64,000 bases of DNA, taken from positions 1,000 through 64,999 of the forward strand of contig JBAZRG010000003.1 in the NCBI GenBank assembly GCA_041663145.1, in the 5' to 3' direction. Below are positions 48,275 to 63,776 of this stretch, in pieces. The stretch is from Minisyncoccota bacterium. GTDB taxonomy: Bacteria; Patescibacteriota; Minisyncoccia; Phycocordibacterales; PALSA-1337. The position numbers were made by a program, and so were the translations under genes. Position 1 is the first letter of the stretch; each line of letters starts with the position of its first letter. The notes under the pieces were generated by a model. It did not search any database, was not told the DNA's origin, and was given only the letters and a program-made list of their open reading frames with translations.

Positions 48275-48706
<432 letters not shown>

Positions 48707-48730
48707 TTATTTCTGTTTCTAAATTATTCA

Positions 48731-49713
48731 TGATGTACAACCATATCATATCCTTAGAAAATTTGCTCGAGGCCTGGAAAGAATTTCTTAAAGGGAAGCG
48801 GAGCAAGAAAGATGTGCAGGAATTCCAATATAAGCTTTCTGATAACATATTTGCGCTTAATGCCGATCTAAGAAATAAAACCTATGTACATGGGGGATAT
48901 TATGCTTTCAATATTTCTGATCCAAAACCAAGAAATATTCATAAAGCAAAAGTACGGGATAGGCTTTTGCATCACGCACTCTATAGGAAGCTTTATCAAG
49001 TATTCGATATACATTTCATTCATGATTCATATTCGTGCCGAAAGTTTCGGGGAACTCATCGAGCATTGAAGTGTTTCAGAAAGTTTGCACTCAAGGGTAG
49101 TAAGAATAATACAAAGACATTATGGATCCTGAAATGCGATATAAAAAAGTTTTTTGCTTCAGTTGATCAGAAAATTCTTGGTGAAATTCTGAAAAAATAT
49201 ATTACTGACCTTGATGTTATCGACCTTATTAAGCGAGTGACTGACAGCTTCAGCAGTACGGCTGTTGGGAAGGGATTGCCGTTAGGAAATCTGACATCGC
49301 AGCTATTGGTGAATGTATACATGAATGAATTTGATCAATTTATGAAACATGATCTGAAGGCTAAATATTACGTCCGCTATGCTGACGATTTTGTTATCAT
49401 GAGTAGAAATAAGACATGGCTTCAAGCGATCTTGATACAGATAAGCGATTTCCTATATGAAAGATTAGCGTTGAAACTCCACCCAGACAAAATCAGCATC
49501 AAGACGTTCGCTTCAGGAGTGGATTTTTTGGGATGGGTTAATTTTCCTGATCACAGTGTCTTACGGACAACAACCAAAAAAAGAATGTTTAATCGACTGA
49601 ACATAAGTAAAGGTAAGCGGGAAGTTTTAAGTTCGTACATCGGATTATTGATTCACGGTAATAGCAAAAAACTAAGAAATAGAATTGAAAGGGAATATGA
49701 TAACGATAAATAA
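48731..49713 (+). CDS. DGR reverse transcriptase
   Basis: NLLEAWKEFLKGKRSKK N-terminus; motif 4 GLPLGNLTSQLLVNVYMN (SQ rather than the group II SP); motif 5 YVRYADDFVI. Track ORF starts at 48655 through the microsatellite; ATG 48731 is preferred. Confidence 0.85.
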
Positions 49714-51998: not shown

Positions 51999-52532
51999 TT
52001 AAATCAAATCTGATTGAGTTCCGTTCTCGGGACTTCCTGAATAATCAACAGCGTATTCGAGTAGAAGTGCGCCATTTTCGGCCTGTGAGGAACTGACTAG
52101 TCGGAGGTGATAGAGCATATCTTCTTTGAAAAGTCGGATGCCACTGCCAAATAGTATCGGCTCGATGGTGAGGAAAAGTCTATCGACGACTCCGGCTTTC
52201 ATGAACATCGTGTATATTTCAGATCCTCCACATATAGCCACCTCTTGGTGCCCGCGTCTTTCCAATTCAGCCAAAAGATCTTTCGGACCGGCATTCATGG
52301 TCTCGGCTCCTTCATAAGTTTTGGAACGGGAATAGACTATATTTACACGCTCTTTGAGTGCCCTTGGTAGTGTTTGAAATGTTTTTGAGCCCATTACAAC
52401 AACTCCAGCGCGTTTTGTTAGTTCGACGAATCTCTTTTTATCTTCTTTACTCGTCCAAAAAGCGGGATGTTTGTCATTTTTGGCTATGTAGCCATCGGCA
52501 GTCAATGCGGCAATGATGAATGTCTTTATCAT
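51999..52532 (-). CDS. dihydrofolate reductase-family protein (RibD C-terminal/DHFR fold)
   Basis: IKTFIIAALTADGYIA...VVMGSKTF...ICGGSEIY pattern; start taken at ATG 52532. Confidence 0.6.
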   Translation of the reverse strand: MIKTFIIAALTADGYIAKNDKHPAFWTSKEDKKRFVELTKRAGVVVMGSKTFQTLPRALKERVNIVYSRSKTYEGAETMNAGPKDLLAELERRGHQEVAICGGSEIYTMFMKAGVVDRLFLTIEPILFGSGIRLFKEDMLYHLRLVSSSQAENGALLLEYAVDYSGSPENGTQSDLI

Positions 52533-52570
52533 AATAATATTGTAGCATAAGATTTTATATGATAAGTTAG

Positions 52571-53215
52571 TTGAATAATACTTATATGACAAAAAAAGGA
52601 TTTATCACAAATGGGGGTATTTTTTCAATAGAGTCAAATTTCAATGATAGATTTGTGCCAAATTATAAAGATCTCAGCGATCTCGTGGTACATTGCAGAG
52701 GTTTGGGTTTAAAAATTGTTTTGACACAAGGTACTTATGATATGGTTCATATTGGCCATGCCCGTTATTTTGAGGAAGCTCGTAAACATGGCGATCTTTT
52801 GATTGTTGGTGTTGATAGTGATAAAAAAGTTCGTCAGCGCAAAGGGCCAGAACGACCGATTGTGCCTCAAAGTGAAAGGCTTGAAATGATAACTCATTTA
52901 AGATCAGTTGATATTGTTACTTTGAAGGAAAATAACATGCCTCGTTGGCATCTTATCAAAACTGTACGACCAGATGTTCTCATTGTGACCAAAGAGACAA
53001 TGGTTAAGTATGATGAGAAAGAAATCAGAGAGATGCGTTCGTATTGCGGGAAGGTTGTTGTGTTAAATCCGATGGCTACTACTTCGACGAGTGCAAAGAT
53101 AAGATTGCTTCAGATTAAATTGGCCAAAAAGTTTGAAAAAGCAATTGTTCCAAAACTGGCAGATATGATAAGTGCTGCGCTTGGACATCCACAAAATGCA
53201 GATAAAAAGAAATAA
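52571..53215 (+). CDS. cytidylyltransferase-like nucleotidyltransferase (HIGH motif; RfaE-II/TagD-like)
   Basis: VLTQGTYDMVHIGHARYFEEAR...IVGVDSD. Confidence 0.6.
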   Translation: MNNTYMTKKGFITNGGIFSIESNFNDRFVPNYKDLSDLVVHCRGLGLKIVLTQGTYDMVHIGHARYFEEARKHGDLLIVGVDSDKKVRQRKGPERPIVPQSERLEMITHLRSVDIVTLKENNMPRWHLIKTVRPDVLIVTKETMVKYDEKEIREMRSYCGKVVVLNPMATTSTSAKIRLLQIKLAKKFEKAIVPKLADMISAALGHPQNADKKK

Positions 53216-54059
53216 TCTTAAGAAGAAAATCGAGGTTATCATAGCCTATGTGCCTGTTCTGCATGAAGGATATCGCCGGTTCTTCGAGAAGCATCCAAAA
53301 GCCGACGCCCTTTATTTATTGAGCAGCGACATAACCAAAGAGTTCGTTCCTTTGGTCAAAGATATCAGAGCTTTGCCACCGGAGATGATCAGAGACTCAT
53401 TGATTGCTTGGAAAAGATTCAAAAAGATAGAGATCATAGATTCGTCCGACCTAAAGAAGGTGGCTGGCAATCGCAAAGTGATAATGCCTGATGAAGATGT
53501 TATGCATGAGATTAAGGAAAAGTTTTTACCTGATTTAGAAATCATCTTTGATACAATATTTTTGCGTTGGGATAAACACAAATCAAGCGAGGGACAGCCT
53601 GTGGATGTCGATCAGACGATCTCGGTAAAAGATTCCGATCAGGAGATCATCGCTCTTTTGAAAGCTGAAGCTGAAAAAAGCTCTGATTTTTGGAGGCATA
53701 TCGGCGCTGCAATAATGAAAGACGGCAAGATCGTCTTACAAGGGCATAATCATCACGTTCCTAGCGAGCAGACGCCTTACGTCGATGGCGATCCGCGCAG
53801 TGATTTTCATAAAGGAGTGAACCTAGAGCTCTCTACAGCTATCCACGCTGAGGCTTCCTTGATCGCTGAAGCAGCTAGGAAGGGGATAAAATTAGAAGGA
53901 GCAGAGATGTATGCTACTACTTTTCCTTGTCCTCCTTGCGCAAAATTGATTGCTTATTCAGGAATTAAAAAACTTTACTATGCGGATGGTTATGGTGTTC
54001 TTGATGCGGCGAAGATATTAAAAAGTAGAGGAGTAGAGATAGTGTTCGTAAGAAAATGA
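53172..54059 (+). CDS. dCMP deaminase (CMP/dCMP deaminase zinc-binding domain) with N-terminal extension
   Basis: HAEASLIAEAARKG ... PCPPCAKLI. Confidence 0.7.
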   Translation: MLRLDIHKMQIKRNNLKKKIEVIIAYVPVLHEGYRRFFEKHPKADALYLLSSDITKEFVPLVKDIRALPPEMIRDSLIAWKRFKKIEIIDSSDLKKVAGNRKVIMPDEDVMHEIKEKFLPDLEIIFDTIFLRWDKHKSSEGQPVDVDQTISVKDSDQEIIALLKAEAEKSSDFWRHIGAAIMKDGKIVLQGHNHHVPSEQTPYVDGDPRSDFHKGVNLELSTAIHAEASLIAEAARKGIKLEGAEMYATTFPCPPCAKLIAYSGIKKLYYADGYGVLDAAKILKSRGVEIVFVRK

Positions 54060-54111
54060 TGTTTTAGAAAATAAAGGCATCTGTTAAGACTGGAATCTTT
54101 TTTTGTATCCA

Positions 54112-54585
54112 TTATTCTATCTTATAATCTTTTGGTTGACCGAATTTGAATTTCCAAGCCTCGTCACTATTCAACGCTTCGAGGTCTGGCTCTATCATGT
54201 GGGCGTGGATATGGAGGACACTGTTGCCGTATGATCCATGTGGAGGGTTGCTGCCAAAGCGCATGGCGATACCGCCGCCAGGAATATTTCTTTTTATCGC
54301 TTCTTCTTTGAACATCTCTATGAGCTCTGCTCCAGCATCTGGATCCATCTCAGATATATGCTCGATATGGGTTTTATATATGGCTAATAACTGATGTTTG
54401 ATCTTTTCATATGGCCACTGATTGTCGGTGAGGATCCAAAATTTACCCTCTTTCAGGATCGGCTTCTTGTGATATTTCAGGAGATTCTCCGTACAAAAAG
54501 GACAATGCTTCTGTTCAGCGATCTCATTCATGACTTCTTTCTGATCTTCGCGACGGATATTGTCCAAGATTATAAATTTTTTCAT
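54112..54585 (-). CDS. HIT-family nucleotide hydrolase/transferase
   Basis: Histidine triad VLHIHAHMI plus N-terminal CPFC zinc motif. Confidence 0.55.
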   Translation of the reverse strand: MKKFIILDNIRREDQKEVMNEIAEQKHCPFCTENLLKYHKKPILKEGKFWILTDNQWPYEKIKHQLLAIYKTHIEHISEMDPDAGAELIEMFKEEAIKRNIPGGGIAMRFGSNPPHGSYGNSVLHIHAHMIEPDLEALNSDEAWKFKFGQPKDYKIE

Positions 54586-54603
54586 AGCAGATATCTGTGG
54601 AGT

Positions 54604-55515
54604 TTATATAGCAACTGGTATGCCTTTTATCCCCGGATGAGGAGCATAGTCGGAGAGAGCGAAATCTTCCTTCCTGAAATCAAATAGATTCTTCTTGTCT
54701 GGATTTATGGTTATAGTCGGAAATGCTTTAGCCTCGCGCTTGATCATCTCCTCTACAGCAGGGATCTGATCGACGTAGATATGACAGTCAGAGATCGTGT
54801 GGATATATTCATATGGCTCGGTTCCAGTGGCTTGGGCTATGGCCATGAGAAGTGCAGCGTACTGGATCATATTGGCGGGAACGCCTACAGGCAGATCTCC
54901 AGAGCGCTGGATCATATGAAGGGTTAATTTATTATCAAGGATGCGCAGGTGGATCCAGCCATGACAAGGAGCGACGACAACTTTCTGCTGTTTTCCAGTC
55001 CCACGGATGGTGTATTGAGGTATCCATGGGGTGATGAAGTGCGTGCGTAGGTGAGGGAATTCTTTCATCTGTTCGATAATATTCTTGAATTGATTGTAAT
55101 TTGAACCTTCAGATGTTGGAAAATCATGAAAAGCTGCTCCGTAAGATCCAGGGCCGAGGTCGCCAATTTCCAAATCGCGCTTCGAGCATTTAGCTTCTGT
55201 GCCCCAAGGTGCCCACCAATGACAGCCGAATTCCTCAAGCTTATTTAGGGTTCTAGCGCCATTTATGAAAGCTAGTATCTCTGCGATGGCTTGTTGCCAG
55301 ATCGTGACCTTGAGTATCTCGGAGACTTTTGGATTCATATTCCTCTCTGTTATCATGGGGAAGCCATTTTCCATTTTGAAATGCATCGATCCTGGTCCCA
55401 TGAGAGTTATGGCATCGACTTCTTGTTGGGTATTCGTGCGCACGCCTTTTTCTAATACTTGTCGCAAGAAATCGCGATACTGAGTGTCGGGTGTCCTTTC
55501 AGAGAATAGTTTCAT
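54604..55515 (-). CDS. thyA: thymidylate synthase
   Basis: Catalytic PCHGWIHLRI and LHMIQRSGDLPVGVPANMIQYALL. Confidence 0.85.
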   Translation of the reverse strand: MKLFSERTPDTQYRDFLRQVLEKGVRTNTQQEVDAITLMGPGSMHFKMENGFPMITERNMNPKVSEILKVTIWQQAIAEILAFINGARTLNKLEEFGCHWWAPWGTEAKCSKRDLEIGDLGPGSYGAAFHDFPTSEGSNYNQFKNIIEQMKEFPHLRTHFITPWIPQYTIRGTGKQQKVVVAPCHGWIHLRILDNKLTLHMIQRSGDLPVGVPANMIQYAALLMAIAQATGTEPYEYIHTISDCHIYVDQIPAVEEMIKREAKAFPTITINPDKKNLFDFRKEDFALSDYAPHPGIKGIPVAI

Positions 55516-55636
55516 AAGATAGATTTGCTCTTTGTGTTTATAATGAATGAATTATATCATGTTAAAATAAAAGTGAAGACGTTTAAAACCATGTAAAAAC
55601 TAGGATAAATAAGAGAATAATTTTAACGATAAGCCG

Positions 55637-56059
55637 ATGAACCTCAAGGTAAAAAAGCTCCACCAAAATGCCAAGATCCCATCCTACGCCCACCAAGGCG
55701 ATGCGGGCATGGATATATTCACTTTGGAAAGGACGGTGTTGAAGCTAGGGGAGAGGGTGGCTGTTAAGACTGGCATCTCGATGGAGATACCAGATGGCTA
55801 TGTCGGCTTGGTTTGGGATAAGAGCGGCATCGCGATACATGAAGGATTGAAAATCATTGGTGGAGTGATCGATAGCGGATATCGCGGGGAGATAATGATC
55901 GGTGTGATAAATCTTTCCGATAGAGAATATACCTTTGAAGCAGGTCATAAGATCGCACAGATGTTGATCCAAAAGATTGAGTCTCCAGAGATAGAAGAAG
56001 TCGATGGATTGTCTGAAACGGAAAGGGGACATGGAGGATTCGGCAGTACAGGGAAGTGA
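55637..56059 (+). CDS. dut: dUTP diphosphatase
   Basis: Motifs HQGDAGMDI, GGVIDSGYRGE, RGHGGFGSTG. Confidence 0.85.
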   Translation: MNLKVKKLHQNAKIPSYAHQGDAGMDIFTLERTVLKLGERVAVKTGISMEIPDGYVGLVWDKSGIAIHEGLKIIGGVIDSGYRGEIMIGVINLSDREYTFEAGHKIAQMLIQKIESPEIEEVDGLSETERGHGGFGSTGK

Positions 56060-56219
56060 TTTAATTAATAAAAACGATGATTTGATGAGAAAGATCGAAA
56101 ATAGGGCATACATATTAGTCTGTGTATAACCTGTTGATAATATGGGTATTGCTTTTTTAAATGAAAGGCGTACTGTATTAATAGGTTAGTTCTATAGCAG
56201 AGCAATACACCATCGCACA

Positions 56220-56352
56220 TAGTCGGGCTTTCTTTTCACTTTCTCTCCCGGCGGTTCGCTTCATGGTTGGTGCAAGCTAGGCTAGACACCGTTCTGCCCT
56301 TCGGTGTCGGGGCCGTCGATTCATTCCCTACAGATCGACGGCCCTTTTTTTT
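56220..56352 (+). promoter_or_regulatory. structured 5' leader with strong intrinsic terminator immediately upstream of glyA (attenuator/riboswitch candidate)
   Basis: Hairpin gacaccg..cggtgtc, then 11-bp stem gggccgtcgat/atcgacggccc + T8, ending 21 nt before the glyA ATG. Confidence 0.35.
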
Positions 56353-56372
56353 ATCTCAAAAAATGATAGGAT

Positions 56373-57575
56373 TTGAATATGAACGATATACAAATAAAAA
56401 AACTTATTGAAACAGAGAAGAAAAGGCAGAAGAAAGTTATCAATTTGATCGCTTCGGAAAATTACGTGTCGAAAGATGTACTAGAGGCACTTGGTTCTGA
56501 GCTTACAAATAAATATGCCGAAGGGTATCCCGGTAAAAGATATTATGGAGGCAATGATATTGTCGATAAGATAGAATCTTTGTGTCAAAAGAGAGCATTG
56601 GAACTATTTGGACTTGATCCGGATAAATGGCATGTGAATGTTCAGCCGTTGTCTGGTTCGCCGGCAAATACCGCGGTTTACACAGCGCTCGTGCCACCCT
56701 TGGGAAAAATCATGGGTATGTCACTCGATCAAGGGGGACACCTTACTCATGGTCACAAAGTTTCGGCTACAGGTAAATTTTGGACTCAGGTTCCATATGG
56801 TTTGGATGGAACAACGGAAGTTTTGAATTACGATCAGCTTCGTGAGACGTCCATCAAGGAAAAGCCGGCTATCATTGTGACTGGATATACCGCCTATCCG
56901 CGCATTATAGATTGGTCGGAGATGAAAGAAGTTGCACAAGTCTCTGGCGCACTCCTCATGGTCGACATGTCGCATATTGCTGGTTTGGTAGCTGGTAAAG
57001 CATATCCTTCACCTTTTCCTTTTGCTGATATTGTGACGACAACGACGCACAAAACACTCCGAGGACCGCGCGCGGCTCTCATATTTGTAAAGAAAGATGC
57101 CCGTGAACTCGATCGAAAGATCGATAAGGCGGTATTTCCAGGTTTGCAGGGGGGACCTCATATAAATCAGATTGCCGCGGTGGCAGTCGCTCTCAAAGAA
57201 GCGGCCAGTCCAGCTTTCAAAAAATACGCCGCACAGGTAACGAAAAATGCAAAAGTTCTGGCAGAAACTCTGAGTCAGAACGGCTGGCGTCTGATCTCTG
57301 GTGGTACGGATTCACATCTCATATTGGTTGATACATGGAATGGTGGAAAAAAGAATGAAAATGGCGCCGGAGGTATTTCTGGTAAAGAGGCTAGTCTCAA
57401 ACTAGAATCTGCCGGAATTATAGTGAATAAAAACGCCATACCTTTTGACTCTAGACCTCCGATGGATCCTTCCGGTATTCGTTTGGGTACGGCTGCCGAG
57501 ACGACTCGAGGTGCTAAAGAAAAAGATTTCAAAGCTATTGCCCAAAAGATCGATAAGATATTGAGGTCAGAATAG
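56373..57575 (+). CDS. glyA: serine hydroxymethyltransferase
   Basis: PLP-Lys region VTTTTHKTLRGPRAALIF; GYPGKRYYGG. Confidence 0.9.
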   Translation: MNMNDIQIKKLIETEKKRQKKVINLIASENYVSKDVLEALGSELTNKYAEGYPGKRYYGGNDIVDKIESLCQKRALELFGLDPDKWHVNVQPLSGSPANTAVYTALVPPLGKIMGMSLDQGGHLTHGHKVSATGKFWTQVPYGLDGTTEVLNYDQLRETSIKEKPAIIVTGYTAYPRIIDWSEMKEVAQVSGALLMVDMSHIAGLVAGKAYPSPFPFADIVTTTTHKTLRGPRAALIFVKKDARELDRKIDKAVFPGLQGGPHINQIAAVAVALKEAASPAFKKYAAQVTKNAKVLAETLSQNGWRLISGGTDSHLILVDTWNGGKKNENGAGGISGKEASLKLESAGIIVNKNAIPFDSRPPMDPSGIRLGTAAETTRGAKEKDFKAIAQKIDKILRSE

Positions 57576-58004: not shown

Positions 58005-59684
58005 ATGAATAAGCTTATTTTGAACCGATTGAATGAAATAGCAGGTGGATTGTCCATAGATCCTCATTCGATCAGATTGGATATACCTGAGTCTGTCGAG
58101 CATGGTGACTTCTCATCGAATGTAGCGATGGTGAATGCTAAGAAGTTAGGTCTATCGCCAAAGGATTTGGCGGAGAAGATCATCATTGAATTTGAGAAGG
58201 AAATGCCTGAGGCTATAGAATCTGTACATATCGCTGGACCGGGATTCATCAACTTTCGTTTCAAAGATGATTTTTTGGCTAAAAAAGTATTGGAGAGCCC
58301 ACAAGCAAAACAGGATTCAGTGAAAGAAAAAGTAATGGTCGAATATACAGACCCAAATCCTTTCAAGGTTTTTCATATAGGTCATCTGATGTCGAATGCC
58401 ATAGGTGAATCTATTTCGAGACTTATAGGATATTCTGGAAAACAGATTATCCGCGCAAACTGGCAAGGAGATGTTGGACCACATGTTGCCAAAGCGATTT
58501 GGGGGTCATTACACTTGGAAAGTAAAACAGATGAAATGCCAGAAGAGTATTGGGGTCGGGCTTATGTTCTCGGTAATGTGCAATCAGAATCGGACCCAGT
58601 AGCTAAACAGGAGATCGATGAAATCAACAGGAAGATTTACGATAGGAGTGATGAGAAAATAAATGAGATATATGATAAAGGACGCAGACAATGTCTAGAT
58701 GCATTTGAGAAAATATATGCGAGGTTGGGGACAAAATTCGATAATTATTTCTTTGAGGGCATCGAAGGTAGAAAAGGGCAGGCTATTGTAGATGAATTTC
58801 GAGAGCAGGGCGTCTTTGAGGAGAGTGATGGAGCGATCGTCTTTAAGGGGGAAAAATACGGTTTGCATACCCGAGTCTTCACAACTTCAAAAGGATTGCC
58901 TACTTATGAAACCAAGGAACTGGGTTTGAATCGGGAAAAGTTTTCTCTATATCCTGATCTAGATCAGTCGATCATCATCACTGCGAATGAACAGAGTGAT
59001 TATTTCAGGGTTTTGCTAAAAGTCATGGATCTCGTATATCCGGAGATCGCCACAAAGACCAAGCATATTTCGCATGGTATGTTACGTTTTGCATCTGGAA
59101 AGATGTCTTCGCGTACAGGCAACGTCATCTCGGCTGAATCTTTGATCTCGGAAATCAAAGAGATGGTGATAAAAAAGATAGCTGACAGAGATTTTTCCAA
59201 ATCAGAAACTGATCAGATATCCGATGAAATAGCGATAGGCGCGATAAAGTATACAATACTCCGTTCTTCCATCGGTGGCGATATCATATTTGATTCGGCA
59301 TCCTCAATATCATTTGAAGGAGACTCTGGACCGTATTTGCAGTATTCGGCGGTTAGAGCGGCGTCGGTTTTGGAGAAAGCTCGATCGGCAGAGCAAAAAA
59401 ATTCCGGTGAAATCGTTTTTCCGGATAAAGTCGGAATTCTAGAGAGATTGATAGTTTGTTTTTCGTATACTGTAGAGAGAGCTCAAAGTGAACTTGCTCC
59501 ACAGATCGTGGCAAACTATCTGATCAGTTTGGCTGGGGCATTCAACGCCTATTACGCTACACAAACTATTATCGACAACAACGATCCGTTATCACCTTAT
59601 CGGCTGGCTCTGGTTAAAGCATTTAGGGATACGATGGAGCAAGGATTGTTCATTCTTGGTATCAAGATTCCAACGAAGATGTGA
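58005..59684 (+). CDS. argS: arginine--tRNA ligase
   Basis: Class I HIGH (FHIGHLMS) and KMSSRTG motifs; DALR anticodon-binding domain. Confidence 0.9.
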   Translation: MNKLILNRLNEIAGGLSIDPHSIRLDIPESVEHGDFSSNVAMVNAKKLGLSPKDLAEKIIIEFEKEMPEAIESVHIAGPGFINFRFKDDFLAKKVLESPQAKQDSVKEKVMVEYTDPNPFKVFHIGHLMSNAIGESISRLIGYSGKQIIRANWQGDVGPHVAKAIWGSLHLESKTDEMPEEYWGRAYVLGNVQSESDPVAKQEIDEINRKIYDRSDEKINEIYDKGRRQCLDAFEKIYARLGTKFDNYFFEGIEGRKGQAIVDEFREQGVFEESDGAIVFKGEKYGLHTRVFTTSKGLPTYETKELGLNREKFSLYPDLDQSIIITANEQSDYFRVLLKVMDLVYPEIATKTKHISHGMLRFASGKMSSRTGNVISAESLISEIKEMVIKKIADRDFSKSETDQISDEIAIGAIKYTILRSSIGGDIIFDSASSISFEGDSGPYLQYSAVRAASVLEKARSAEQKNSGEIVFPDKVGILERLIVCFSYTVERAQSELAPQIVANYLISLAGAFNAYYATQTIIDNNDPLSPYRLALVKAFRDTMEQGLFILGIKIPTKM

Positions 59685-59726: not shown

Positions 59727-62700
59727 ATGGATCAAAGTTCAAAATCAGAAAAATCAACGCACGCTCTACGTGAGGAAAAGATCCTTGCTTATTGGAAGGA
59801 TAAAAATATATTCGAAAAGACCATGACTCTGCCTGCATCCGGCGGAAAGTCCAAGGGAGAGTTCATATTTTACGAAGGACCACCGACTGCCAATGGTCAT
59901 CCGGGCATACATCATCTGGTCGCCAGAGCTTTTAAGGATGCTGTTCCACGTTTCAAAACCATGCGTGGATATCACGTTCGTCGCAAGAGCGGTTGGGACA
60001 CTCATGGTCTGCCTGTTGAATTGCAAGTCGAAAAGGAGTTGGGACTTAAATCAAAAAAAGAGATAGAAAAATACGGTATCGCTGCTTTTAATGAAAAATG
60101 CAAAGAAAGCGTCTGGACATACGTTCATGAATGGGAACAATTTACCGATAGGATAGGGTATTGGGTCGATCTCAAGGATCCTTATATAACCTACAAGAGC
60201 AATTATATAGAATCTCTATGGAGTATTGTGGAAACTGTCGAAGAGAAAGGTTTACTTTATAAAGATTATAAAGTCGTTCCATGGTGTCCGCGTTGCGGAA
60301 CCGGACTTTCTTCGCATGAGTTGGCACAAGGATACGCCGATGTTAAAGATTTATCAGTCACTGTAAAATTCAAGATCGAAAAATCTGATAAGTTTGATTC
60401 TGACAAAGATACCTTTATTTTGGCTTGGACGACCACGCCGTGGACATTGCCGGGAAATGTCGCTTTGGCAGTCAATGAAAAGATTGAATATATAAGAGTT
60501 CGTACCGAGGATTGCGATCTTATTTTGGCTAAGGAAAGAATTGTGGTACTAAAAGATATTAAGTATGAAATCATCGACACCGTGAAGGGCACTGATTTGA
60601 TCGGACTAAAATACGAGCATCTCTATTCTTTCATCAAAGATAATATCGATGGTACGGAAAAAGGTAAACTGGATAATGCCTACAAAGTCTATTCTGCCGA
60701 TTTTGTAAATACTTCAGATGGTACGGGTATAGTTCATACAGCTGTCATGTATGGTCAAGACGATTTTGAATTGGGAAGCAAGATTGGTTTACCAAAATAT
60801 CATCTTGTAAATGAAGATGGAACTTTCAAGACTCAAGCTGGATTTTTGTCAGGTAAGTTTGTGAAAGATGAAGCGACCGATGTTGAAATCATAAAAGATC
60901 TAGCTAAGCGCGGTCTTCTGTTTGCCAAAGAAAAATATCAACATAGTTATCCATTTTGCTGGAGATGTCATACACCTCTCATATATTTCGCGCGCGATTC
61001 ATGGTACATAAAGATGTCAGATTTGCGAAAGAAACTCGTCAAAGAAAATGAGGACATAAACTGGGAACCAAAACACATCAGAGACGGTCGTTTCGGTGAG
61101 TGGCTTCGAGAAGTCAAAGATTGGGCGATTTCTAGAGAAAGATATTGGGGTACACCACTTCCGATCTGGGTTTGTGATGTATGTAAAGAAAGGAAAGTGG
61201 CAGGTTCCGTCGAAGATATTGCCAAGAAATCCAAAAACTCGTATTTCGTCATGAGACACGGTGAGGCGGAGAATAACGCGGCTCATTTGTTGGATTCGGA
61301 ATCTAATTCTACGAGCCATCTCACGACTAAAGGTCAGGATGATGTCAAAAATGCCGCAAATAGCTTGAAGAAATCCAAGATTGATATCATCTACTATTCA
61401 CCTCTGGCTCGGACAAAGGAGACTGCCACTATTGTTAAAGAAACATTGGGATTGGCCGATGATAAGTTTATTGCAGATGAGAGACTGAGAGAAATGGATC
61501 AGGGGCAGTGGTCAGGCAGATCGGCTGTCGAATTTGATGAGAAGTTTCCTTTGCACGAGCGTTTCGATGAATTGCCAGACGGAGTCGAGGATTACACGCA
61601 AATACGTCGGCGTGTAGGTGATCTCTTGTACGAGATAGAAAATAAACACAAGAATCAAAATATTTTATTTGTTACACATGGATCGCCAGCCATGATGCTC
61701 ATGTCAGTAGGGCAAGGGTATTCAAAAGAGCAGACGATTCGAAATGAAATCGAAAATTATATCAGCAAATCTGAGAGTCGAATCCTTGATGTAAAAATAT
61801 TGCCTCATAATCAGGATTATGAGCTCGATCTGCATCGCCCGTATATAGATGAAGTCAAACTGAATTGTAAATGCGGTGCTTCCATGACTAGAGTAAAGGA
61901 GGTGATGGATGTTTGGTTCGATTCTGGAGCGATGCCTTTTGCTCAGGACCATTATCCATTTGAGAATAAAAAATATGTAGATAAGATCGGATATCCGGCT
62001 GATTTTATCTCTGAAGCTATCGATCAAACTCGTGGCTGGTTTTATACTTTGCATGCGATAGGCGCGCTTCTCGGCAAAGGTAAAGCTTATAAAAACGTCA
62101 TTTGTTTGGGACATATATTGGATGCGGAAGGAAAGAAGATGTCGAAGTCTATAGGCAATGTCGTCAATCCTTGGGAAATGATAGACAAGTTTGGCGCTGA
62201 TGCGCTCCGGATGTGGATGTATTCGGTCAATCAGCCGGGTGATTCGAAAAACTTTGATCCCAAGACTGTTGATGAAATCAATAAGAAAGTTTTCAATCTC
62301 GCTTTGAATGTTCTCGCATTTTACGAACTTTATGCCGGAGGAGCGGATAGTGAAGACGGGGTCGCGCGTATTCCAAATTCTCAAAATGTCTTGGATCGAT
62401 GGATTGTGGCACGTCTGGCGCAACTTTTGGAAATTGTCACAAATAAACTGGAGAACTACGAGTTTTTCGAGCCAACCAGAGCTATCCGAGATTTCATCGG
62501 AGATTTGTCACAGTGGTATATCCGCCGTTCTCGCGACAGATTCAAATCCGACAATGAAAATGATAAGCGATCCGCTTTAGAGACTACAAGGTTTATTCTT
62601 ATCACTCTAGCAAAGATCATGGCCCCATTTACTCCGTTCTTCGCCGAGCATATATACCAAGGATTGAAAGGTGAAAAAGAGAGTGTTCATCTCGAATCGT

Positions 62701-63182
62701 GGCCGGATTCAAAAGATTTCAAGACCAAATCAGATCATGATCTGATAAACAATATGGACACAATCAGGAGCCTTTCGTCAAAAGGTTTGGAAGCCAGGAT
62801 GATGGCTAAGATAAATGTCCGCCAGCCACTTGCTTCTCTTAAGATACGCGAGATCGAAGCTGTGCCCGATGAATTGGCTGTACTTATAAAAGATGAGGTC
62901 AATGTCAAAAATATCGTTTGGAATGCCAAAACAGAAAAAGACGTGGAATTGGATATTATTCTCACTCCAGAATTGAAAGAAGAAGGAGAAGTGCGAGAAT
63001 TGTTGCGTCGCATTCAGGATCTCCGTAAGGAGAAAGGATTTAAGGTAAATGATATAGCTATTTTAGTGGCGACGGCGGATCTGCGTGATCTGATCAGTAA
63101 AGACGAGAATACAATCAAAATACAGACGAAACTCTCCAAGATCGAATACGGTCAAGAGTTCGGGTTAAAAGAGGGCAATTGA
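59727..63182 (+). CDS. ileS: isoleucine--tRNA ligase with ~170-190 aa insertion containing a histidine-phosphatase (PGAM-like) domain
   Basis: HIGH PPTANGHPGIHH; WCPRCGT and CWRCHTP zinc/editing motifs; DWAISRERYWG; KMSKS. Insertion at about codons 495-690 (nt 61200-61790) carries RHGEAENN...SPLARTKE...REMDQGQW...THGS. Confidence 0.85.
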   Translation: MDQSSKSEKSTHALREEKILAYWKDKNIFEKTMTLPASGGKSKGEFIFYEGPPTANGHPGIHHLVARAFKDAVPRFKTMRGYHVRRKSGWDTHGLPVELQVEKELGLKSKKEIEKYGIAAFNEKCKESVWTYVHEWEQFTDRIGYWVDLKDPYITYKSNYIESLWSIVETVEEKGLLYKDYKVVPWCPRCGTGLSSHELAQGYADVKDLSVTVKFKIEKSDKFDSDKDTFILAWTTTPWTLPGNVALAVNEKIEYIRVRTEDCDLILAKERIVVLKDIKYEIIDTVKGTDLIGLKYEHLYSFIKDNIDGTEKGKLDNAYKVYSADFVNTSDGTGIVHTAVMYGQDDFELGSKIGLPKYHLVNEDGTFKTQAGFLSGKFVKDEATDVEIIKDLAKRGLLFAKEKYQHSYPFCWRCHTPLIYFARDSWYIKMSDLRKKLVKENEDINWEPKHIRDGRFGEWLREVKDWAISRERYWGTPLPIWVCDVCKERKVAGSVEDIAKKSKNSYFVMRHGEAENNAAHLLDSESNSTSHLTTKGQDDVKNAANSLKKSKIDIIYYSPLARTKETATIVKETLGLADDKFIADERLREMDQGQWSGRSAVEFDEKFPLHERFDELPDGVEDYTQIRRRVGDLLYEIENKHKNQNILFVTHGSPAMMLMSVGQGYSKEQTIRNEIENYISKSESRILDVKILPHNQDYELDLHRPYIDEVKLNCKCGASMTRVKEVMDVWFDSGAMPFAQDHYPFENKKYVDKIGYPADFISEAIDQTRGWFYTLHAIGALLGKGKAYKNVICLGHILDAEGKKMSKSIGNVVNPWEMIDKFGADALRMWMYSVNQPGDSKNFDPKTVDEINKKVFNLALNVLAFYELYAGGADSEDGVARIPNSQNVLDRWIVARLAQLLEIVTNKLENYEFFEPTRAIRDFIGDLSQWYIRRSRDRFKSDNENDKRSALETTRFILITLAKIMAPFTPFFAEHIYQGLKGEKESVHLESWPDSKDFKTKSDHDLINNMDTIRSLSSKGLEARMMAKINVRQPLASLKIREIEAVPDELAVLIKDEVNVKNIVWNAKTEKDVELDIILTPELKEEGEVRELLRRIQDLRKEKGFKVNDIAILVATADLRDLISKDENTIKIQTKLSKIEYGQEFGLKEGN

Positions 63183-63194
63183 CGTTAAGGTGAT

Positions 63195-63776
63195 ATGTAT
63201 CATATTAGAACAACCCCGGGCTTTATAATCGGTTCCAGGCCATTTGGAGAGGCCGGGAAGGCTATGTCGATTTTTACTCGAGAATTCGGTCTCCTAAATG
63301 TGAGAGCCTTGGGAATCCGTCTGGAAAAATCCAAATTGAGATATCATGCAAGAGAATATACATTTGGTCATTTTTCTCTAGTTAAAGGCAAAGAATATTG
63401 GCGACTTACTGGAGCGATTTCGGATTCTACTCCACTTGATAGTAAGATTGGAAACGGTTTGCTCGGTAAGATCGCTTTTATTCTAGATCGCTTACTCCAT
63501 GGAGAAGATCCGAATCCAGAACTTTTTGACGGGGTTAAAGCCTGTGAATCTTTTCTGAGAGACAATGCGAGTCTTTCAAGAGAGCGAGCATGTACACTCG
63601 AATCTCTAGTTATGATTCGGATTATGCGTGAGCTCGGATATGTCGGAGGAAAGATGGAAGATTTGCGGTATGTCGATTCGATAGTTCTTACAATTGAAAT
63701 CTTGGATGAAATCGCTCCAAAGAGGCAGATGATGAATAAACATATAAATAAGGCTTTGCGTGAATCACATCTTTAA
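63195..63776 (+). CDS. recO: DNA repair protein RecO
   Basis: N-terminal OB-fold pattern TPGFIIGSRPFGEAGKAMSIFTREFGLLNVRALG; length and fold consistent with RecO. Confidence 0.65.
   Translation: MYHIRTTPGFIIGSRPFGEAGKAMSIFTREFGLLNVRALGIRLEKSKLRYHAREYTFGHFSLVKGKEYWRLTGAISDSTPLDSKIGNGLLGKIAFILDRLLHGEDPNPELFDGVKACESFLRDNASLSRERACTLESLVMIRIMRELGYVGGKMEDLRYVDSIVLTIEILDEIAPKRQMMNKHINKALRESHL

Follow-up and report, generated by a model that had tools for sequence, protein, structure and literature searches.

Small histidine phosphatases of branch 1 are well described as free-standing enzymes, and PspA of Hydrogenobacter thermophilus, PhoE/YhfR of Geobacillus stearothermophilus, CobC and Rv2419c share with the domain reported here a single fold of ~190–210 amino acids (aa), the catalytic series RHG...R...E...H and a motif of the 'RLRE..G.W.G' type. 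PspA (a phosphoserine phosphatase) and CobC (an alpha-ribazole phosphatase) stand alone and have defined small substrates; our domain, in contrast, is nested in, or encoded beside, an aminoacyl-tRNA synthetase. It lies within ileS, the isoleucyl-tRNA synthetase (IleRS) gene, of a Minisyncoccota bacterium (contig JBAZRG010000003.1), in a 64,000-nt stretch of DNA that we call the window; residue numbers below are aa of the window IleRS, and L and P numbers are our own handles for loci and proteins.

Described synthetases offer partial likenesses to this arrangement. The IleRS2 of Priestia megaterium (PmIleRS2) and the IleRS of Thermus thermophilus (TtIleRS) are collinear with the window IleRS on both sides of the insert over nearly the full length, with the GXHH signature, the editing motifs, KMSKS and DUF5915 in common, but no solved or described IleRS has a domain between residues 478 and 479 (8C8W numbering), where they have a short zinc (Zn)-knuckle hairpin. 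The CP1 editing domain is likewise a hydrolytic domain nested in a connective peptide of the Rossmann fold, in IleRS as well as in the valyl- (ValRS) and leucyl-tRNA synthetases (LeuRS), but its fold and chemistry are unrelated (aminoacyl-ester rather than phosphomonoester hydrolysis), and it is universal whereas the insert is confined to a lineage of the candidate phyla radiation (CPR). The NCBIfam family NF040702 (ileS_w_GNAT) also has an extra enzymatic domain in ileS, of a different enzyme class, and one protein discussed below (P0207) has a His_Phos and a GNAT domain in the same region. Proteins of the RNase H/acid phosphatase group (Rv2228c type, PRK07238) do join a nucleic-acid enzyme to a CobC-like phosphatase, but as an end-to-end fusion with RNase H and not as a nested domain; PRK07238 is the best-scoring phosphatase-containing NCBIfam model for our insert (E=2.4e-22, score 79.8 against a cut-off of 326). 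In the literature searched, we found no paper containing both 'isoleucyl-tRNA synthetase' and 'histidine phosphatase', and none describing a histidine phosphatase that sits inside a class I synthetase or shares an operon with one; AARS Online (PMC11580382) makes no mention of a synthetase with a histidine-phosphatase domain. Type-2 IleRS, branch-1 histidine phosphatases and extra synthetase domains are each known, and it is their nested or paired combination that appears to be without prior description, the second enzyme being hidden in annotation behind the public names 'class I tRNA ligase family protein' or 'isoleucyl-tRNA synthetase'.

The insertion is clean. In an alignment to 8C8W, window aa 13–502 correspond to chain residues 11–478 and aa 693–1110 to 479–897; because residues 478 and 479 are adjacent and match window aa 502 and 693, the 190-aa segment replaces nothing, and KMSKS is shifted by exactly its length. 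A first-pass annotation of this DNA had placed the insert at 61200–61790 and the displacement of KMSKS at about 200 residues, both close to the 61233–61802 and 190 residues obtained from the solved IleRS2; its figure of ~230 aa between the flanking motifs was right in that a large extra segment is present, but the spacing from DWAISRERYWGTPLPIW (aa 465–481) to DVWFDSGAMPF measures 246 aa, of which 190 are insertion. The insert occupies the hairpin between C483-x-x-C486 and C714-x-C716, the two halves of the second Zn knuckle, and so stands after the WGTPLPIW strand and before the DVWFDSG that begins the second half of the catalytic core (residues 40–168 and 513–632 in PmIleRS2; PMC10485003). 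In the nomenclature of yeast IleRS, which distinguishes a CP core, CP1/editing, CP2 and CP3 (PMC11685878), this site is in the last connective peptide, which the order of the elements suggests to be CP3.

Conservation was computed on 67 complete insert-bearing IleRS, and a separate check was made on the 150 best cluster representatives. All four cysteines of the second Zn knuckle (C483, C486, C714, C716) are found in only ~27 of the 67; in the family alignment, hardly any variation is seen at the first Zn site (C187, C190, C411, C414). There is no marked difference in GC content between the insert (0.43–0.45) and its flanks (0.39–0.42). A full-length AlphaFold2 (AF2) model built on 56 insert-bearing sequences has a mean predicted local distance difference test score (pLDDT) of 92.3 and a predicted template modelling score (pTM) of 0.86, and in it the junction blocks (aa 491–510 and 681–710) reach pLDDT 95–96, such that short ordered connections, and not flexible linkers, are predicted to join the domain to the synthetase.

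Within aa 503–692 the only Pfam family is His_Phos_1 (PF00300), which matches aa 507–677 over profile positions 2–173 of 194; with E=8e-32 and a score of 110.9 bits, this match far exceeds both the gathering threshold of 21.7 and anything expected by chance. Compared alone with solved structures, the insert is closest to PspA (4IJ5, E=2.4e-14) and PhoE/YhfR (1EBB and 1H2E, ~1.6e-11), followed by the yeast cofactor-dependent phosphoglycerate mutase (dPGM; ~1e-4). An AF2 model of the insert from an 88-sequence alignment (pLDDT 95.8, pTM 0.92) has the alpha/beta fold of the phosphoglycerate mutase-like (PGAM-like) proteins: Foldseek ranks PspA (4IJ6/4IJ5), PhoE (1H2E/1EBB), mycobacterial Rv2419c, CobC and a riboflavin-pathway HFP first among PDB entries and the longer dPGM and bisphosphoglycerate mutase (BPGM) enzymes after these small phosphatases, with probability 1.00 and TM scores of 0.70–0.77 to PspA, PhoE, Rv2419c and the dPGMs. 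All of the residues that define branch 1 are present, namely RHG with the nucleophilic His, a second Arg, an acidic proton donor and the distal His, and each motif quoted in the first-pass annotation lies where it had been placed. That annotation had proposed an in-frame, PGAM-like histidine-phosphatase domain, and had allowed that alignment might instead reveal an ordinary IleRS insertion lacking such a fold; alignment with characterised IleRS and structure prediction speak for the proposal as to superfamily, fold and catalytic residues, and against the ordinary insertion, with the refinement that the domain is PspA/PhoE/CobC-like and not a mutase.

The distinction from the mutases is visible in the motifs themselves. 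The dPGMs have NERHYG-type and HGN-type motifs at the catalytic Glu and the distal His, where the insert reads RLREMDQGQW, which is phosphatase-type, and THGS; mutase-specific residues are absent, and the mutase models score far below their cut-offs (dPGM_arch 77.3 against 225, PRK01295 40.1 against 316, GpmB 42.8 against 261). The NCBIfam equivalogs for PspA (70.7 against 350 bits), CobC (72.3 against 162.9) and SixA (44.2 against 74.5) fail likewise, and with every family-level score below its cut-off no substrate can be assigned by homology. Judged by its sequence and its predicted fold, the insert is a member of the branch-1 histidine-phosphatase superfamily, of the small-phosphatase kind, and not a phosphoglycerate mutase. 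Among PHROGs, only a generic family of unknown function was matched, and neither the insert nor two stand-alone relatives described below (P0011 and P0020) matched a PADLOC defence model.

The pattern of conservation argues that this phosphatase is used as an enzyme. R510, H511, G512, S558, R562, R629 and H651 are invariant in all 67 IleRS, and E589 is Glu in 66 and Asp in one, at a mean pairwise identity of 38% for the insert as opposed to 46–58% for the IleRS core regions. Across the 150 representatives, the Arg and His of RHG are kept wherever they are covered, while the Gly is Ala, Ser or Thr in some (RHA, RHS, RHT); the position of E589 is Glu or Asp in almost all sequences that cover it, with Val in P0227 as the sole exception; and the R-H...R...E/D...H set as a whole is kept in nearly all that are covered, tandem copies included. 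A catalytic set that is invariant at only 38% identity indicates that catalysis is under selection, as for an enzyme and not a scaffold, and the nested domain is probably a catalytically competent, active phosphomonoesterase. That it is a real, conserved and catalytically intact nested phosphatase we regard as almost certain.

The architecture is not confined to the window. A scan of the GTDB species-representative genomes with the insert alignment returned at least 582 stretches, some of which may be insert-less IleRS matched through the flanks. The best 80 of these cover the whole insert at 37–50% identity and come from Patescibacteria metagenome-assembled genomes (MAGs) labelled Parcubacteria, Paceibacterota, Zambryski-, Taylor-, Nomura-, Adler-, Wolfe- and Kaiserbacteria or Minisyncoccia; at these loci ileS runs in a single frame of ~1120–1240 aa across the insert, and 66 of the genes are complete. 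An exhaustive 50%-identity representative library likewise holds many full-length members (1147–1197 aa), with the match at ~aa 485–720. The nested domain is clade-wide and probably an ancestral, selected feature of Paceibacteria IleRS. The first-pass annotation had called it unusual and had recommended both a survey of related genomes and a check for an assembly chimera: the nested phosphatase itself is borne out, the survey finds the same uninterrupted open reading frame (ORF) in 66 independent species-level assemblies, which excludes a chimera, and instead of a peculiarity of one genome there is a clade-wide trait with split-gene and ValRS counterparts.

Broken versions were also encountered. 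At three loci (L001:4714-8242, L002:4747-8204 and L003:4496-7869), ileS is interrupted by frameshifts or an in-frame TAA, and in L002 argS is broken too; long-read assemblies with many errors are the likeliest cause, though the genes may be pseudogenes. Split genes had first been suspected from fragment matches, but tblastn showed frameshifts and an in-frame TAA in error-rich contigs, with intact genes elsewhere. A word-indexed protein collection yielded only short fragments (≤431 aa) of insert-bearing synthetases, which, given the full-length members in the genome collection and the 50% library, is no evidence of rarity.

In other genomes, the same phosphatase is encoded by a gene of its own beside ileS. 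The closest stand-alone relatives (P0010–P0017) are proteins of 180–189 aa that match the insert profile with E=1e-54 to 1e-47, and their boundaries are exactly those of the nested domain. Their gene is directly flanked by argS upstream and by an insert-less ileS (929–967 aa) downstream, and recO comes next, as in the gene order of the window (L084, L085, L086, L088). A metagenome scan with the P0010–P0017 group gave 80 loci, 66 of them stand-alone (L089–L154) and 14 nested. An insert-less ileS follows on the same strand at 56 of the 66 stand-alone loci, abutting or overlapping the phosphatase gene at 51 and separated from it by one extra ORF at the others; at the other ten the contig ends too early (at four of them after the start of the extra ORF), and no contradicting arrangement was seen among the 66. 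The same position is taken by P0020, a more divergent stand-alone relative; P0005 is encoded after argS, and P0024 at another place. The extra ORF, of ~250–340 aa (L091:5181-5816, L106:1482-2234, L109:5134-6135, L125:4575-5597, L139:756-1616), has an acidic low-complexity N-terminus (MSE..EEEPK..) in L106, L109, L137 and L139.

Nested and stand-alone forms differ strongly in charge. At L089–L154 the stand-alone proteins have a marked excess of positive charge (median net charge +15, pI 9.8, +7.8 charges per 100 aa), compared with +1.5/−0.25 per 100 aa for the IleRS and +2.4 for the arginyl-tRNA synthetase (ArgRS) at the same loci, whereas the nested domains of the GTDB set are mildly acidic (−2.6 per 100 aa). 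The additional basic residues are scattered over the whole domain, also beside the catalytic motifs, a distribution that is suggestive and not decisive. From this difference in charge we infer that the enzyme, once untethered, needs to bind a polyanion (tRNA) or the synthetase by itself. Distances are saturated and internal branches very short (0.01–0.05) in the neighbour-joining (NJ) trees, which were computed for the phosphatase domains and for the IleRS core; in the IleRS-core tree the stand-alone-type IleRS fall into three groups, with monophyly in 0 of 50 bootstraps under midpoint rooting.

Copy number and host synthetase vary as well. Several IleRS have two tandem phosphatase copies at the insertion site (P0166, 1419 aa; P0257, 1468 aa; P0171, P0192, P0169 and P0226), each copy with its catalytic residues retained. 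The domain is also nested, independently, in ValRS. P0136 (L175:366-3851; valS models at 380–410 bits), a real ORF present in two assemblies, has four copies at two sites, and five further ValRS fragments from uncultured bacteria contain the domain (P0274–P0278). In P0274, P0275 and P0278 it occupies the site equivalent to that in IleRS, after WGHRIPVW and before DTLDTWFSSG, with KMSKS following in the same ORF of P0274; P0276 has it at two sites, and P0277 at a third, after DTWFSSGLW. In all, ValRS has one to four copies at three sites: before the CP2 'IPxRF' segment, after WGHRIPVW and after DTWFSSGLW. Taken together, the nested IleRS domain, the adjacent gene and the ValRS sites indicate that this phosphatase has been joined repeatedly to the synthetases for Ile- and Val-tRNA. 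As a separate observation, P0207, a truncated IleRS of 1066 aa, has a REP-associated tyrosine transposase (RAYT-like, IS200-like Y1) at aa 326–472, within the first tRNA-synt_1 match, as well as His_Phos at aa 680–854 and a GNAT acetyltransferase at aa 935–1063.

We consider the best overall explanation, to which we assign a probability of roughly 55%, to be that the nested domain is an active phosphatase, maintained by selection, paired with the synthetase and serving the aminoacylation complex. The parts of this explanation differ in strength: phosphatase and IleRS are probably functionally paired, in view of the basic stand-alone form encoded next to an insert-less ileS and of the nesting in ValRS, while the proposal that the target is a phosphorylated ligand of the aminoacylation complex, as opposed to unrelated metabolism, is tentative and falls slightly short of even odds. 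As a mechanism, we envisage that a complete branch-1 phosphatase, seated on the end of the Zn-knuckle hairpin and directly ahead of the second Rossmann half with its KMSKS loop, would hold a phosphate with R510, R562 and H651, that H511 would be transiently phosphorylated and that E589 would act as general acid/base; the domain would in this way strip the terminal phosphate from a ligand that the synthetase binds or releases, for instance a tRNA with a blocked 3′-end or a nucleotide formed as a by-product. A more specific version, distinctly unlikely in its full detail, is that a phosphomonoesterase acting in cis (and, in the split-gene lineages, in trans through tRNA binding) clears phosphate from the tRNA acceptor end or a nucleotide bound to the synthetase, either before IleRS and ValRS charge their tRNAs or while they do so; targets at the acceptor end might then be, with the same reserve, a 3′-phosphate or 3′-pyrophosphate left by nucleases or tRNA-pyrophosphorylating toxins. 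Were this so, the class Ia synthetases would gain a new catalytic step and, beside CP1 editing, another built-in means of repairing or proofreading their substrates.

Several observations weigh against a role in the aminoacylation complex. The argS-ileS-recO synteny is itself conserved, so that the adjacency of the stand-alone gene says little by itself about function, and the NJ trees resolve too poorly for fusion and fission events to be counted. The nested form, being acidic, is not obviously RNA-binding alone, and a general tRNA-end repair enzyme would not be expected on IleRS and ValRS alone. The two to four tandem copies and the three ValRS sites make a single, exact spatial coupling to the active site less likely. 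Lastly, the closest characterised relatives are small-molecule phosphatases, with the family-level models below their cut-offs and no substrate to be inferred from them.

The last two of these points bear directly on the main rival, which we hold to be unlikely as it stands: that the domain is an autonomous, broad-specificity small-molecule phosphatase of the PhoE/PspA/CobC type, with a chemistry unrelated to aminoacylation, for which a permissive hairpin of an essential, constitutive protein (or a gene next to it) simply guarantees co-expression in a minimal genome. Its nearest relatives in both sequence and structure are all small-molecule phosphatases, the cap region that would shape the substrate pocket is poorly conserved, and multiple copies at several insertion sites resemble cargo more than a precisely placed module. 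The same hairpin region takes up a GNAT domain in P0207, NCBI curates a separate family of IleRS with GNAT, and the local Zn knuckle can be dispensed with, having been lost in ~40 of the 67. However, repeated joining to the Ile and Val synthetases in three ways (nested, as an adjacent gene and at other sites) is more than a one-off accident; the untethered form is far more basic than its neighbours, which would be unexpected for a soluble metabolic phosphatase; and the junctions are predicted to be ordered and not flexible linkers.

It is also conceivable, though improbable, that the domain is a protein phosphatase or regulatory module, either dephosphorylating IleRS or a partner (for example, reversing inhibition by a HipA-like kinase toxin near the KMSKS/ATP site) or, in an equally improbable variant, sensing a phosphorylated metabolite and signalling to the adjacent KMSKS half. 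SixA, PGAM5 and Sts-1 are protein phosphatases of the histidine-phosphatase superfamily, and the insertion directly ahead of the KMSKS-bearing Rossmann half, the ordered junctions and a weak similarity to SixA (NCBIfam; 1UJB) would be consistent with such a role. On the other hand, the SixA score is below its cut-off (44 against 74.5 bits), no conserved kinase was found in the neighbourhood of the loci examined, and such a role would explain neither the tandem copies nor why the stand-alone form is basic. Less probable still is a purely structural or tRNA-binding appendage with a leftover ancestral active site. Its position would be comparable to lineage-specific pre-KMSKS insertions in related synthetases, class Ia synthetases having lineage-specific insertion domains such as the leucine-specific domain of LeuRS, and an overall insert conservation of 38% is low; but a full catalytic set invariant in 67 sequences at that identity, and kept in nearly all of the 150 representatives including tandem and ValRS copies, is hard to reconcile with a relic, and the nested form is acidic. 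An assembly chimera, mis-called gene, mobile element or intein has a negligible chance of accounting for the domain, as the fragmentation of L001–L003 and of all word-indexed protein matches, which might suggest one, is set against error-rich contigs with frameshifts and stops also in argS, 66 assemblies with one frame, full-length library proteins, an insert GC close to that of the flanks and the absence of any Pfam Hint, intein or transposase domain from the whole protein and of a homing-endonuclease domain from the insert.

Aminoacyl-tRNA synthetases are among the most conserved of enzymes, and catalytic domains nested in their Rossmann fold are rare apart from the editing domains. To find an apparently active phosphatase built into, or genetically coupled to, an essential IleRS throughout a CPR class, and in parallel in ValRS, is surprising from a synthetase specialist's viewpoint. 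Should the preferred explanation hold, with the aminoacylation complex as the target of the phosphatase, tRNA charging would gain a new accessory reaction; if the enzyme is autonomous, it would be a clear case of minimal genomes using permissive loops of essential proteins as enzyme carriers.

Table 1. Features of the window ileS and its two neighbouring genes, with positions in the 64,000-nt window.
Feature	Position	Strand	Basis
argS, upstream neighbour	58005..59684	+	ORF; synteny in L001–L003, L084–L088, L089–L154
ileS, type-2 (eukaryote-like) IleRS, 1151 aa, one unbroken ORF	59727..63182	+	ORF list
Class I signature, non-canonical G-I-H-H (aa 60–63)	59904..59915	+	Sequence; aligns with PmIleRS2 GVHH mutant
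First half of second Zn knuckle, C483-x-x-C486, base of insert-bearing hairpin	61173..61184	+	Sequence
Nested histidine-phosphatase domain (aa 503–692), branch 1, PspA/PhoE/CobC-like	61233..61802	+	Pfam PF00300; 8C8W alignment; AF2; Foldseek
R510-H511-G512, phosphate-binding Arg and nucleophilic His, in RHGEAENN	61254..61262	+	Invariant 67/67
R562, second phosphate-binding Arg, in SPLARTKE (from aa 558)	61410..61412	+	Invariant 67/67
E589, general acid/base of RLRE motif, in REMDQGQWSG (from aa 588)	61491..61493	+	E in 66/67, D in 1
H651, distal catalytic His, in VTHGSPA (from aa 649)	61677..61679	+	Invariant 67/67
DLHRPYID, IleRS chain resumes	61827..61850	+	Sequence; H703 invariant; aligns with 'ELHKPYVD' of PmIleRS2
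Second half of Zn knuckle, C714-K-C716	61866..61874	+	Sequence; conservation
DVWFDSGAMPF	starts aa 728	+	Sequence
KMSKS loop, intact (aa 804–808)	62136..62150	+	Sequence; K804 and K807 invariant 67/67
Anticodon-binding domain (aa 890–1035)	62394..62831	+	Pfam PF08264, E=1.3e-31
C-terminal DUF5915 region (aa 1072–1144)	62940..63158	+	Pfam PF19302, E=2.9e-13
recO, downstream neighbour	63195..63776	+	Pfam RecO_N; synteny kept in relatives

The synthetase that hosts the phosphatase looks to be a working type-2 IleRS, as its KMSKS loop, editing-domain motifs and GXHH signature are intact (Table 1). The protein is identical to NCBI MFA6315383.1, a MAG entry named 'class I tRNA ligase family protein [Candidatus Paceibacterota bacterium]', and exceeds the equivalog cut-off of the NCBIfam model TIGR00392 (ileS; 900.1 against 621.4 bits), the NCBIfam matches pointing to the MupA/MupB-like type-2 kind. 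Its nearest solved structures are those of PmIleRS2 (8C8U-8C9D) and TtIleRS (1ILE), and its assignment to type 2 follows from E values of ~1e-240 to these two, compared with ~1e-100 to the Staphylococcus aureus IleRS or PmIleRS1, and from DUF5915, a C-terminal region of the IleRS2 type. In Pfam order, tRNA-synt_1 appears in two stretches with His_Phos_1 between them, followed by Anticodon_1 and DUF5915, the last of which is also present in the insert-less IleRS of L084, L085 and L088. WTTTPWTLPGN and GTGIVHTA, both motifs of the CP1 editing domain, have aligned counterparts in PmIleRS2. The G/AXHH form of the class I signature is the non-canonical form of IleRS2 and has been tied to mupirocin hyper-resistance (Brkic et al. 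2023, PMC10485003); H63, the last His of the window's GIHH, is His in 60 of the 67 relatives and Ser in seven. The window IleRS does not belong with the MupA/MupB mupirocin-resistance IleRS (823.6 and 805.8 bits against an exception cut-off of 1900 in NCBIfam), nor with ileS_w_GNAT (NF040702; 326 against 1999), and no acetyltransferase Pfam match is present in the protein.

Ahead of argS-ileS-recO, genes of nucleotide and one-carbon metabolism form a cluster (51999–57575) that is partly kept in L002:1-1845 and whose members comprise a dihydrofolate reductase (DHFR)/RibD_C-like protein, a cytidylyltransferase, a dCMP deaminase, a HIT-like protein, thymidylate synthase and serine hydroxymethyltransferase (SHMT). 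Further upstream, directly before nusG, a reverse-transcriptase ORF (RVT_1, E=1e-23; 48655–49713, + strand) could belong to a group II intron, a retron or a diversity-generating retroelement. Long antisense ORFs that overlap ileS, such as one of 233 aa at 61722–62423 on the − strand, look like by-products of the coding frame rather than genes.

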